This document shows positions 2,989 to 14,817 of a stretch of 32,000 nucleotides of DNA, piece by piece. The translations under genes and the position numbers were made by a program. The notes beneath the pieces are model-generated. The model saw only the letters and a program-made list of their open reading frames with translations, made no database searches and was not told where the DNA came from. Numbering within the stretch: the stretch's first letter is position 1; each line of letters begins with the position of its first letter. Source of the DNA: Candidatus Saccharimonadota bacterium (GTDB lineage Archaea; Nanohalarchaeota; Nanosalinia; Nanosalinales; Nanosalinaceae); NCBI GenBank assembly GCA_001761425.1, contig CP012986.1, forward strand, positions 840,001 to 872,000, given 5' to 3'.

Positions 2989-3067
2989 AACAAAATCTTG
3001 GCTTCAAGGCCTTAGCGTTTATTACAGAAGGAAATAATCTATCAGGCAGGCCCGAAAATTACAGTAG

Positions 3068-3073
3068 AAAAAA
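3068..3073 (-). terminator. T6 run (archaeal oligo-T terminator) after the tRNA-Tyr locus
   Basis: The plus strand reads AAAAAA, which is TTTTTT on the minus strand. It begins 10 nt downstream of the outer 3' tRNA-like copy, which ends at 3083. Confidence 0.45.
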
Positions 3074-3082
3074 TATGTTGTA

Positions 3083-3107
3083 TCCCGACTCCAGGATTTG
3101 AACCCGA
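3083..3107 (-). repeat. Partial direct copy of the tRNA-Tyr 3' end (T-arm + acceptor 3' strand + A73)
   Basis: The minus strand reads tcgggTTCAAATCCTGGAGTCGGGA. The last 22 nt are identical to positions 52-73 of the tRNA-Tyr at 3160..3233. No matching 5' acceptor strand lies between it and that tRNA. Confidence 0.8.
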
Positions 3108-3159
3108 AGCTCGCGGGACCGGAGCTTCTCACAAGCTTCAAATCCCATATGCGTTGACA

Positions 3160-3233
3160 TCCCGACTCCAGGATTTGAACCTGGGACAATCCGCTCTACA
3201 GGCGGACGCTCTGCCAGCCTGAGCTAAGTCGGG
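3160..3233 (-). tRNA. tRNA-Tyr (anticodon GTA)
   Basis: Hand-folded 74-nt cloverleaf: CCCGACT TA GCTC AGGCTGGCA GAGC G TCCGC CTGTAGA GCGGA TTGTC CCAGG TTCAAAT CCTGG AGTCGGG A. All stems pair by Watson-Crick. The C1-G72 pair is the archaeal/eukaryal Tyr identity pair. No encoded CCA. Confidence 0.9.
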
Positions 3234-3277
3234 TCTGCCGTCTTAGTCTCATTCAAGAACCGCTTTTGGGCTTCGCA

Positions 3278-3292
3278 CTGAGCTAAGTCGGG
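3278..3292 (-). repeat. Partial direct copy of the tRNA-Tyr 5' end (positions 1-15)
   Basis: The minus strand reads CCCGACTTAGCTCAG, 15/15 identical to the start of the tRNA-Tyr. It lies 44 nt upstream of that tRNA. Identity stops exactly after position 15. Confidence 0.8.
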
Positions 3293-3397
3293 TTTGAAGG
3301 CGCAGAAGTAGGCCTTCAGACTGTGTGTTCGTGGATTGTGTACGAACATTTAAGAGGGTTATCGGAGAAGAATTTTTGCTGTTCGCAGATGTATGGT

Positions 3398-4753
3398 TTA
3401 CGGATTGAACTCTGTTGTGAACTGTCCGGTTTTCTTGAGTAGTTTTTCTCCTTCTTTAAGCTCTGCTTTCGGGAGTTCGACTCCGCCCTCTACCTCTACT
3501 TTAGGCCTTATTGTGTACTGGAGTACTCTCTGGTCGCCGGGTTCGAGGTCTTTTAGGCCCCAGGTTAGTTTGGTGCCGTCGTTTGTCTCCCTGACTGTAG
3601 GTGAGGCCATTTCGAAGTTTTTGTCGACTGATGCGATGTCTGGTACGAAATCTTCTACTTTGACGTCTCTGAAGGTTCTATCGGAGATGTTTTCTACTTC
3701 TATTGATATTTTGAGGCCTCCTGCTGTTTTCTCTGCTTTTTTTCTTATTTTGACTGTGTTCCTGAGTTTTCTGAGGCCTGCGAGTGCTATTATTATTCCG
3801 AGTAGTGCGGTTGCTGGCATCCAGTAGTTTGTCTGTCTCTGGACTGTGAATGATTCTCCGGGCTGTAGCTGTTCTGTGAAGTAGTATACTGTTTTTGAGG
3901 CCTCTTCTTTCTGTCTGTTCGGTTCTCTGTTGAATCCTGTTATCGGTGTGAGGTAGCTGGGTACTGATCTGTTCAGTGTGTGGTTTATAGGTGAGTTACC
4001 CTGGTTCTGTACGGTTACGGTTCCTGTTATCGTCGCCAGGTTGTTGGTGCTGGATGTGTTTCTTTTTATCTTCAGGATTTCTCCGATCGTGAAATCTGTT
4101 GAGGCCTTTTCTACTTTCTCTCCCTGGAGGATGAGAGAAGTGTTCAGTGTTTTCCGGTCAGGTTCTGCGTCGTTTTCTACCGGTAACTGGAAGGATAGTG
4201 TTCTTGTACCTCCTGGGAGGATCGGCGAGCTTGTCTTTTCTGTTGAATGGTTTTCGTATCCTGCCCTGAGTTTATAGTCTCTGAGAAGTGAGGAGGAAAT
4301 GCTTCTTATCTTTGCCTCTCCTCTTACTGTTTCCCCGGGATCGTACGCTGTCCTGTTCAGATTTGTGTCTTCGAGTATGATTTTTCTGTCCCTATCTACT
4401 CTGAAAGAAGTCTTGATCTGGTGAGAATGCTGGGCTATCGATGAACGTGGATAAAGAGTGAAAGAATAGCTCTGGTCGAGTGCGTATTCTCCCGGACTGA
4501 CGGTTATCTTGAATGAGTGATTCTCTCCCGGTTCAAGGCTTCGGGAGCTTTCGACGTAGAACCAGGAAGGTTTAGGAGTGAAGGATCCGACTTCAAAGGT
4601 TCCAGACTGAGACATATTATTCTGGATATCCACGTAGAAGACAGCCGGGTCCTCAGGCGAGGCTGAACGGTCCTCAACGTCAAGAGATGCTGGAAAAGCA
4701 ACCGCCGAAGCTGAGAAAAATATCAGGAAAAGAAAGACCCAGGACTTCTTCAT
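3398..4753 (-). CDS. Secreted/membrane-anchored surface protein with beta-sandwich (CARDB/DUF11-like) segments
   Basis: 451 aa. It has an N-terminal signal peptide (MKKSWVFLFLIFFSASAVAFPAS) and a late TM helix (ATALLGIIIALAGL followed by RKLR). Repetitive beta-rich sequence includes an LTWGLKDLEPGDQRVLQY-type motif. The family call is tentative. Confidence 0.6.
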   Translation of the reverse strand: MKKSWVFLFLIFFSASAVAFPASLDVEDRSASPEDPAVFYVDIQNNMSQSGTFEVGSFTPKPSWFYVESSRSLEPGENHSFKITVSPGEYALDQSYSFTLYPRSSIAQHSHQIKTSFRVDRDRKIILEDTNLNRTAYDPGETVRGEAKIRSISSSLLRDYKLRAGYENHSTEKTSSPILPGGTRTLSFQLPVENDAEPDRKTLNTSLILQGEKVEKASTDFTIGEILKIKRNTSSTNNLATITGTVTVQNQGNSPINHTLNRSVPSYLTPITGFNREPNRQKEEASKTVYYFTEQLQPGESFTVQRQTNYWMPATALLGIIIALAGLRKLRNTVKIRKKAEKTAGGLKISIEVENISDRTFRDVKVEDFVPDIASVDKNFEMASPTVRETNDGTKLTWGLKDLEPGDQRVLQYTIRPKVEVEGGVELPKAELKEGEKLLKKTGQFTTEFNP

Positions 4754-14483: not shown

Positions 14484-14505
14484 TGGCAGGACCCGGATTC
14501 GAAAC
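14484..14505 (-). repeat. Partial direct copy of the tRNA-Pro 3' end (positions about 52-73)
   Basis: The minus strand reads GTTTCGAATCCGGGTCCTGCCA. It is 20/22 identical to positions 52-73 of the tRNA-Pro at 14617..14689 and lies 111 nt downstream of it. No partner 5' acceptor strand lies in between. Confidence 0.75.
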
Positions 14506-14616
14506 TCGATAGAGTTTCTGCATCCCCAGAAAATCCTTCGGATTTTCGATGGATTTGAACTTGAAAACAAGTTTTCTGCTGCTTCAAATCACGGGTTGAA
14601 GCAGCGCTGAAAGCGA

Positions 14617-14689
14617 TGGCAGGACCCGGATTTGAACCGGGGTCTGGCCGTCCCAAACGGCCAATGATAGTCCACTACACCATCCCGCC
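14617..14689 (-). tRNA. tRNA-Pro (anticodon TGG)
   Basis: Hand-folded 73-nt cloverleaf: GGCGGGA TG GTGT AGTGGACTA TCAT T GGCCG TTTGGGA CGGCC AGAC CCCGG TTCAAAT CCGGG TCCTGCC A. It has one G4-U69 wobble and a weak D-stem. Confidence 0.85.
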
Positions 14690-14764
14690 GTTACACTTTA
14701 ATCTGGTTCGAAAACCTTTAATCAGGTTTTCTACGATGATCGAACTCTCACGAGTTCGGTTCAT

Positions 14765-14779
14765 CTACACCATCCCGCC
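14765..14779 (-). repeat. Partial direct copy of the tRNA-Pro 5' end (positions 1-15)
   Basis: The minus strand reads GGCGGGATGGTGTAG, 15/15 identical to the start of the tRNA-Pro. It lies 75 nt upstream of it. Identity again stops after position 15. Confidence 0.8.
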
Positions 14780-14807: not shown

Positions 14808-14817
14808 CTTTTAAACC
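14808..14817 (-). promoter_or_regulatory. TATA box upstream of the outer tRNA-Pro 5' copy
   Basis: The minus strand reads GGTTTAAAAG. The TTTAAAA element ends about 30 nt upstream of position 14779, which is the normal spacing for an archaeal tRNA promoter. Confidence 0.4.

Follow-up and report, generated by a model that had tools for sequence, protein, structure and literature searches.

Hairpin modules made from copies of tRNA ends flank the tRNA-Tyr and tRNA-Pro genes of a nanohaloarchaeon and recur at tRNA genes of halophilic archaea

Why should a tRNA gene lie between extra copies of its own two ends? We address this question for the tRNA-Tyr locus of a nanohaloarchaeal genome (GenBank assembly GCA_001761425.1), using the 32,000-nt stretch of contig CP012986.1 from position 840,001 to 872,000, here called the window, in which a minus-strand tRNA-Tyr gene is preceded by a copy of its 5' end and followed by a copy of its 3' end. 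A first-pass annotation, made from the letters of this stretch, had considered a split or nested tRNA, a processing guide, a decoy or the decayed scars of integration. Our analysis shows an ordinary and complete inner tRNA-Tyr gene with a small module on either side. Each flank makes up one long hairpin, in which a direct copy of the neighbouring tRNA end pairs with its antisense, and each end of tRNA-Tyr occurs in triplicate (direct, inverted, direct). The arrangement is genuine and recurs from assembly to assembly, and it is much broader than the first-pass annotation could know. As to its meaning, we give even odds, a probability of roughly 0.5, to the reading that these flank hairpins arose at the DNA level, are transcribed as one with the tRNA, are cut away in the course of normal tRNA processing, and are constrained as hairpins. 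Throughout, locus labels from L004 to L230 denote the fetched relatives, metagenome contigs and viral contigs that were compared with the window.

Read along the minus strand, the locus opens with a TATA-like box, TTAAAT (3348-3353), set in a promoter context, ggtaaccctcTTAAATgttcgtaca, that is conserved 5' of tRNA-Tyr in L004, L006, L008 and L146-L149. It continues with a native leader hairpin (3296-3317) and, directly 3' of it, the outer 5' copy CCCGACTTAGCTCAG (3278-3292), which a repeat search identified as an exact match to tRNA-Tyr positions 1-15. After 44 nt follows tRNA-Tyr(GTA) itself (3160-3233), then 55 nt, the outer 3' copy GGTTCAAATCCTGGAGTCGGGA (3083-3104), identical to the last 22 nt of the tRNA from the T loop to the discriminator base, 9 nt and a T6 run (3068-3073). 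This run is the likely terminator of the whole unit, and T5-T7 runs also stand after the outer copy in L006, L010 and L013. ARAGORN returned a complete cloverleaf for the functional gene at 3233-3160 and the Rfam tRNA model scored it at 64.5 bits; both programs recognised the inner tRNA only. The positions that the first-pass annotation had given for the copies, spacers, apical hairpin and T6 run all proved correct, and its proposal of a single unit behind the only TATA-like box agrees with the placement of the nest between the ancestral promoter, with its conserved TTAAAT context, and the terminator. The copies are not expected by chance: the tRNA-Tyr 15-mer has two matches in the window, a number reached in 0 of 100 shuffles, and for the 22-mer of the 3' end the chance expectation is 0 matches. 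Both repeats overrun the gene, the 5' one spanning 19 nt at 95% identity and beginning 4 nt 5' of position 1 (to 3296), and the 3' one spanning 23 nt (3082-3104 and 3159-3181), slightly past the tRNA border.

Between each outer copy and the tRNA lies an antisense arm. In the leader this arm, TGAGACTAAGACGG (3251-3238), had been missed by the first-pass annotation; it is complementary to tRNA positions 2-14, as seen in minimum free energy (MFE) folds and in our covariation table, and a 4-nt linker, CAGA (3237-3234), separates it from the tRNA. Together with the outer 5' copy, which provides the 5' arm of the hairpin, it forms 12 bp with one mismatch and one bulge in the MFE folds. The apical part between the two arms (TGCGAAGC...GGTTCTTGAA, 3252-3277, defined by the folds) has a stem that is degenerate in the window genome and of a clean GAAGC/GCTTC type in relatives. 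The trailer module is the mirror image of the leader, running from the tRNA through a 13-nt linker (3159-3147), an antisense T loop and an apical hairpin to a copy of tRNA positions 53-73. Its antisense arm GGGATTTGAA (3137-3146), found among the inverted repeats and in the folds, is complementary to the T loop TTCAAATCC(C) and pairs with the outer 3' copy, the 3' arm of this hairpin; GGATTTGAA (3145-3137) is the stretch complementary to TTCAAATCC of that copy. The helix is capped by the 7-bp hairpin GAAGCTC-9 nt-GAGCTTC (3106-3128), whose stem is kept and whose loop varies among the window, L006, L010 and L150. The first-pass annotation had seen both the complementarity to the T loop and the hairpin enclosed by it, and both are borne out here. 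Copy:antisense hairpins of this kind were predicted for leader and trailer in the window as well as in relatives. The inner cloverleaf survives folding of the whole transcript, with a 1:72 pair probability of 0.73 for tRNA-Tyr and 0.99 for the second nested tRNA of the window, tRNA-Pro.

The native leader hairpin, GAAGGC...GCCTTC, is an inverted repeat distinct from these modules. Followed by AAAC, it stands between the promoter and the start of the (outer) tRNA in L004, L006, L008, L022 and L146, and it is kept even in relatives without a nest, L004 among them. In its stem, GAAG...CTTC, it resembles the apical stems of both kinds of module.

The same layout at tRNA-Pro had been pointed out in the first pass, and we find it there with an exact copy of positions 1-15 and a 3' copy of 17-20 nt. 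On the minus strand, a TTTAAAA box (14809-14815) lies ~30 nt upstream of the outer 5' copy (14765-14779), which the repeat search again showed to be exact. The leader spacer (14690-14764, fold z = -4.15) contains two hairpins, GAACTC/GAGTTC and GAAAACC/GGTTTTC, and a short closing helix in which UGGU of the copy pairs with ACCA; the GAAAACC/GGTTTTC hairpin recurs in the tRNA-Tyr leaders of L008, L012, L015 and L146. Downstream of tRNA-Pro(TGG) (14617-14689, called by ARAGORN and scored at 52.6 bits by Rfam), the trailer (14501-14616, fold z = -4.19) folds into four hairpins, assembled for the most part from segments of the T loop in sense and antisense orientation; one of these is a 10-nt T-loop copy (14551-14560). 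It ends at the outer 3' copy GAATCCGGGTCCTGCCA (14484-14500), which can be described as 17 nt with one mismatch to the tRNA or as 20 nt at 95% identity. An Rfam scan of the whole window at the gathering threshold reported tRNA-Tyr alone and missed tRNA-Pro; because the local scan scores 52.6 bits, the omission reflects filtering rather than any fault in the gene. The 73 nt of tRNA-Pro(TGG) are 100% identical between the window and L024/L025, where the neighbouring protein is only ~30% identical, and the L024/L025 tRNA-Pro loci are without modules.

We compared 25 nanohaloarchaeal tRNA-Tyr lineages, aligned by synteny with a gene for a 451-aa protein and spanning neighbour-protein identities from 82% to 30%. 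The leader hairpin is clear in 14 of the 25, decayed in two and absent from nine, and it is doubled in tandem in L015 and L022. The trailer module with its 3' copy could be scored in the 21 lineages with enough downstream sequence and is present in eight, decayed in two and absent from 11. Lineages with only a leader (L008, L014) or only a trailer (L147, L150) show that the modules occur independently. In most nanohaloarchaeal loci the outer copies keep a spacing of 42-63 nt upstream and ~52-57 nt downstream. The nest-free L004, an 82% relative, carries a plain tRNA-Tyr directly after the leader sequence that in L006 stands 5' of the outer 5' copy; this tRNA occupies the exact position of the L006 outer copies, and presence or absence is clean at the repeats. 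Likewise, tRNA-Pro of L024 stands at about the same distance from its TTTAAAA box as the outer 5' copy of the window does. Therefore, the outer copies mark the ancestral position of the tRNA, and the real tRNA has been displaced inward. Across the lineages, modules have been gained and lost independently and cleanly at the direct repeats. Because the arrangement recurs in independent JGI, ENA, NCBI and Logan assemblies of related organisms, it is not an assembly artefact. Its conservation also excludes a random scar, against which the first-pass annotation had argued from the tRNA-Pro locus.

The 451-aa protein gene (window 3398-4753, minus strand), with weak DUF11 and Top6b_C-like matches, lies directly 5' of tRNA-Tyr in 25 of 25 lineages, down to 30% identity, an unusually stable synteny for such divergence. 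Its homologues carry names such as Candidatus Nanohalobium and Nanosalina, and Pfam matches among the window proteins (TFB, DUF63 and CTP-dependent riboflavin kinase) mark an archaeon, which places the window in a DPANN nanohaloarchaeon. The independent metagenome contigs of L002, L003, L005, L012, L146 and L149 end inside or adjoining the tRNA-Tyr nest, which suggests that short repeats or hairpins break assemblies there.

Do the arms follow the tRNA that they copy, or each other? Pairs were tabulated from per-sequence folds; a MAFFT alignment of the leader units is out of register for stems of unequal length. In general, the outer copies match their own tRNA: G5 (CCCGGC...) is found in both in L011 and L013, C7 (...ACCTAG...) in L012, L015 and L016, and the outer copy of L013 follows its own tRNA with ...AGCCGGGAC. 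The tRNA-specific T loop of L022, TTCGAAT, recurs in its outer copy, and its antisense arm has the corresponding GGATTCGA. Accompanying changes in the leader helix are compensatory, A5:T alternating with G5:C and T7:A with C7:G. In L148, four double changes have carried both arms together away from the tRNA while a 10-bp helix is kept, which suggests, at the level of sequence comparison, that the hairpin itself rather than tRNA identity is constrained. The apical stems are diverse, with 11 distinct versions among 15 leader units. Among the window, L006, L010 and L150, the trailer core (ATTTGA...GAAGCTCC / GCTTCGGGTyCAAATCC...) is nearly invariant, and the linker, the hairpin loop and the flank 3' of the copy are unalignable.

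One way to obtain such structures with no role at all would be replication template switching, which would leave inverted triplications or quasi-palindromes as neutral by-products, kept solely through gene conversion with the adjacent tRNA. Much of the layout is in keeping with it. The direct-inverted-direct order, which a template-switch inverted triplication would produce, is found on both sides, and the repeats overshoot the ends of the gene; T-loop segments in both orientations are patched together in the tRNA-Pro trailer, modules are often decayed or lost, and the copies track the tRNA as conversion predicts. We nevertheless hold this explanation to be unlikely, given that non-tRNA cores and hairpin loops are conserved across lineages and isotypes, that copy spacing is consistent in most nanohaloarchaeal loci, and that the L148 hairpin has been retained despite its lost tRNA identity.

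The pattern of divergence also bears on whether the two outer pieces belong together. The first-pass annotation had suggested that they could form the acceptor/T-arm top half of a tRNA, and an acceptor-like helix of 7 bp does appear between them in whole-transcript MFE folds. Mismatches between outer 5' copy and tRNA cluster, however, at positions 1-5, outside the hairpin helix, which argues against selection on an outer acceptor stem. With these positions diverging first, and with leader and trailer occurring separately, the outer acceptor helix is unlikely to be a selected feature.

This leads to the proposal of a split or nested tRNA, in which a second tRNA-like RNA would have the outer pieces as its exons, and the intron would comprise the inner tRNA together with both spacers. 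The acceptor-like helix and the discriminator base in the outer copy are what such a molecule would be expected to have. Counts of bulge-helix-bulge (BHB; 3-nt bulges separated by 4 bp) candidates of the hBHBh' type, however, are at chance level in both nests (3 against a shuffle mean of 1.6, and 2 against 3.7), and no candidate falls at a junction where it would link the outer pieces or release a spacer. Only positions 1-15 and 53-73 are represented in the outer pieces, which, in agreement with the first-pass annotation, hold neither the remainder of a D arm nor an anticodon arm. ARAGORN and Rfam detect the inner tRNA alone, leader and trailer modules occur independently in relatives, and positions 1-5 of the outer copy decay first. 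The split or nested reading is thus largely refuted, and we assign it hardly any weight.

Other RNA elements were sought in the flanks with similar outcome. Rfam 15 at E<=10 gave only RF00005 (tRNA) in the window regions and in 13 module loci, with no family in the flanks; hammerhead and other small ribozymes were set aside, having no Rfam match even at this threshold. For a C/D box or K-turn, considered for the leader internal loop and for a haloarchaeal GGGA/GACC loop, some TGATGA/CTGA sequences are present and the 3-nt bulge geometry is absent, as judged by eye. An internal promoter for the inner tRNA was also rejected, the AT-rich stretches at window tRNA-Pro and L014 lying only 6-12 nt upstream, too close for a TATA box.

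How far does the design extend? The first-pass annotation had proposed to look for flanking copies at other tRNA genes and in relatives, and they do recur in Nanohaloarchaeota and at many metagenome tRNAs. Searching metagenomes for a T loop, an antisense T loop and a T loop in this order gave at least 120 loci; as the pattern selects for the trailer design, these numbers give breadth and not frequency among tRNA genes. Among the matches listed, to which the counts in this paragraph refer, at least 70 tRNAs of ~30 anticodon types (among them Ala, Arg, Cys, Gln, Glu, Gly, Ile, Leu, Lys, Met, Pro, Ser, Thr and Val isotypes) are followed, at a distance of 40-140 nt, by a copy of their own 3' end. 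This copy is exact over 10-26 nt, usually 21-26, and stands behind an antisense T-loop arm and an apical hairpin. Most of the module contigs were sampled in brines and salt ponds and have a GC content of 56-72%; a tandem pair of modules stands at about ten loci, and leader-type modules are rare (L086, L143). L092 encodes a tyrosyl-tRNA synthetase 87% identical to that of Halosimplex; therefore, Halobacteria carry the trailer module too, with one locus confirmed. Non-tRNA cores are common to different isotypes, namely ATCAGGGAG-hairpin-CGACCGT and GGGATTCGAATCAGGGAG-hairpin-CGACCGT in Halobacteria, and GAAAATCC/GGATTTTC in the window tRNA-Pro and the tRNA-Tyr of L013. Here too the stems covary: between the tRNA-Gln loci L060 and L142, two double substitutions separate the apical stems while the loop that they close is identical, and apical stems of the GGGA-hairpin-GACC subfamily covary. 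A few low-GC, bacterial-looking tRNAs have related layouts. In L127, L137 and L080, tRNAs with genomically encoded CCA, probably bacterial, are followed by an antisense T-arm segment (in L127 a perfect 16-nt complement) and then a 3'-end copy; from these loci, the layout may not be restricted to halophilic archaea.

A further hairpin, with a conserved 11-nt loop, GAACGNAGTGA, recurs in haloarchaeal tRNA trailers and at module apices (L026-L145, for example L107, L135, L100, L104 and L047). The loop is closed by differing complementary stems (CTGC/GCAG, GAGAC/GTCTC, CAGACC/GGTCTG), and the hairpin often stands both directly after the tRNA and directly after the outer copy. This loop motif had no match in Rfam, and its sequence had none in the literature searched.

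Could the modules be mobile? Miniature mobile or integrative elements aimed at tRNA genes could recombine with the T arm, giving a trailer, or with the 5' end, giving a leader; the intact tRNA would be restored and a partial copy left behind, as happens with tRNA-targeting integrative elements, with the hairpin as recombination substrate, for example as a folded single strand mimicking the target, and the recombinase acting in trans. The direct repeat reaches from the T stem or T loop to or past the tRNA 3' end in the manner of att identity blocks, presence and absence are clean at the repeats, and two to four tandem modules are found at the window tRNA-Pro and in L015, L022, L150, L063, L070, L087, L094 and L116. 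The cores shared across isotypes and genomes (ATCAGGGAG-hairpin-CGACCGT; GAAAATCC/GGATTTTC) would also be natural for a mobile family, and the direct-inverted-direct order is what a hairpin attP leaves beside its target. Moreover, haloarchaea are known to carry palindromic mobile elements down to 52 bp (PMC3119063).

Against mobility, Pfam scans of 20 window open reading frames detected no integrase or transposase near either window tRNA, and a third copy of the tRNA end kilobases away is missing at 69 of 70 loci among the matches listed. In 2.9 million viral contigs, the module pattern had three matches and the haloarchaeal core none, as compared with 12 of 120 metagenome loci, among the matches listed, for the core. 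A BLAST search of phage and plasmid collections with the haloarchaeal module matched the tRNA part only, a result that covers those integrative plasmids that are in these collections. Orthologous modules persist across lineages whose neighbouring protein is 30-50% identical, and a move from one isotype to another would require the acceptor-strand arm to be tailored anew each time. The idea of decayed integration scars in the first-pass annotation is accordingly weakened by the missing integrase and distant third copy, the near absence of viral matches and the conserved, covarying structure, and keeps some residual likelihood. Frequent loss, tandem copies, isotype-shared cores and T runs between tRNA and module (L147, L125) keep a mobile element as a strong rival, one that we rate as possible and hold only tentatively.

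Viral matches to a shorter pattern, GGATTYGA...GGTTCRAATCC (L151-L230), were discarded: the sequences hit, GGATTTGAA and GGATTCGAA, are the anticodon stem-loops of tRNA-Gln(TTG) and tRNA-Arg(TCG). Motif searches built on an antisense T loop call for caution, as these viral tRNAs confound them.

We favour the constrained, co-transcribed flank hairpin as the reading of these loci. The modules would have arisen at the DNA level by local duplication or insertion, because the repeats overrun the tRNA borders and the outer copies hold the ancestral position by promoter and terminator; gene conversion may have kept their arms tRNA-like, and repeat-mediated deletion may account for their loss. The modules are probably transcribed together with the tRNA and removed by ordinary tRNA processing, to judge from the geometry of the locus, with one conserved promoter 5' of the outer 5' copy and a T6 run 3' of the outer 3' copy. 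No T5 run interrupts the unit in the window, L006, L010 or L013, and the whole could be transcribed from the single upstream promoter to the T6 run. During transcription, the leader antisense arm would be captured by the outer copy before the tRNA is made, and the trailer antisense arm would later be captured by the outer 3' copy. With the antisense arm paired to the outer 'decoy' copy, the cloverleaf can therefore form, and RNase P and tRNase Z would then free the tRNA, the hairpins being discarded. That the hairpins are constrained may reflect a modest cis role in the precursor, such as end protection or ordered processing, or else a need of the element for its own hairpin. The processing guide and the decoy of the first-pass annotation are both possible in the light of these data.

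Several observations weigh against this account. The window Tyr trailer has a weak fold z-score (-1.4). The outer 5' copy can also depart from its tRNA, as in L022 with G5 versus A5, and the covariation cannot separate selection on RNA from maintenance of a palindrome at the DNA level, for example by templated correction. Loss and decay are frequent, with nine of 25 lineages lacking the leader and 11 of 21 the trailer, so that any function is dispensable. A T5 run stands between tRNA and trailer module in L147 (about 3049-3065) and in L125, and modules so placed may lie behind a terminator and escape co-transcription. Isotype-shared non-tRNA cores and tandem modules fit a mobile family as well as or better than a host function, and the metagenome search, tuned to the trailer, speaks to breadth alone. 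In L125, the T run is itself included in the direct repeat.

A more elaborate role in the precursor would be that of a switch that regulates how the tRNA matures. The leader antisense arm would pair either with the decoy, in which case the tRNA folds and is processed, or with the tRNA end, in which case it is trapped; the outcome would depend on transcription speed, salt, temperature or a binding factor. The succession of copy, antisense and target follows the logic of an attenuator, and in whole-transcript folds the inner acceptor pair probability ranges from 0.99 to 0.002 between loci. There is also an engineered precedent, in that synthetic leaders sequestering the tRNA 5' strand are reported to control RNase P cleavage (PMC8925977). 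A ligand- or protein-binding motif was not identified in the modules, however, the modules are dispensable in many lineages, and the folding predictions are thermodynamic only. Taken together, we find a switch improbable.

Bolder still, one could see here an unrecognised class of miniature tRNA-targeted hairpin modules of Nanohaloarchaeota and Halobacteria, either spreading as folded single-stranded mimics of tRNA arms, an archaeal counterpart of CTX attP and integron attC with tRNA arms as targets, or domesticated into a 'cage' of the precursor that controls how RNase P and tRNase Z reach the tRNA. We offer this as a doubtful proposal.

When extra pieces of a tRNA are met beside its gene, they are routinely annotated as pseudo-tRNAs or set aside as scars of integration. 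The fragments described here are arms of conserved hairpins of fixed design, found with many isotypes and in two unrelated lineages of halophilic archaea that share a habitat. If the modules act on RNA, they would constitute a new kind of pre-tRNA leader and trailer element, testable in tractable haloarchaea. If they are mobile, they would be among the smallest site-specific elements known and would point to a so far unknown route of recombination in which tRNA arms are read. In both cases they are relevant to tRNA annotation, to the prediction of att sites and genomic islands, and to metagenome assembly, several contigs breaking at the repeats. The arrangement was found neither in Rfam nor in the literature searched, the coverage of which is incomplete, most subscription journals lying outside it.

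Among known systems, att duplications come close in several respects. They share with the modules a direct repeat of the tRNA 3' part from the T arm to or beyond the 3' end, an intact tRNA, clean presence or absence and tandem arrays, and in L013, L063, L070 and L116 the repeats extend up to 18-50 nt past the tRNA. Unlike att duplications, the modules have 44-55 nt between the repeats, not kilobases with an integrase, they hold an antisense copy and a conserved hairpin in that interval, they have a mirror module at the 5' end, and they lack a virus or plasmid counterpart in the collections scanned. A second comparison is with the t-elements of plant mitochondria and the tRNA-like structure 5' of the Haloferax volcanii 5S rRNA, which is cut by tRNase Z; such tRNA-derived sequence recruits tRNA-processing enzymes in halophilic archaea. 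In both cases a tRNA-derived acceptor strand, T region and discriminator lie next to a stable RNA in one transcript, here a putative one. The outer copy keeps the acceptor 3' strand and the discriminator, and the haloarchaeal antisense arm extends over T stem and acceptor strand. In contrast to t-elements, the T loop of the module is predicted to be paired by the antisense arm and not open, and the module adjoins a complete tRNA that needs no extra signal. The split tRNAs of Nanoarchaeum equitans and the archaeal pre-rRNA stems resemble the modules in that, in a DPANN or archaeal setting, complementarity between leader and trailer joins distant parts of a precursor; those systems need a BHB cut by the splicing endonuclease and yield a functional joined RNA, whereas no BHB is found here and a tRNA cannot be made from the outer pieces.

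At the DNA level, the attP site of CTX phage and the attC sites of integrons are hairpin recombination sites folded from single-stranded DNA. Like these sites and like the haloarchaeal elements termed PATEs (PMC3119063), the modules are imperfect palindromes of 50-130 nt with a variable apex, place an inverted beside a direct copy of the target and accumulate in tandem. They differ from them in having no linked recombinase and in their presumed target, an arm of a tRNA in place of dif or attI; PATEs, moreover, make no target duplication (PMC3119063). The synthetic leader-antisense riboswitches (PMC8925977) likewise have a leader complementary to the tRNA 5' strand that is held by an alternative partner, but they are engineered and ligand-dependent, and a sensing element is not evident in the module. 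Set against att duplications, t-elements and split tRNAs, the modules depart from each in a defining feature, namely the integrase and element body, the open T loop with demonstrated cleavage, which in the modules is predicted to be paired, and the BHB. What they represent, in an architecture apparently undescribed so far, is a duplication of tRNA ends that has been turned into conserved flank hairpins.

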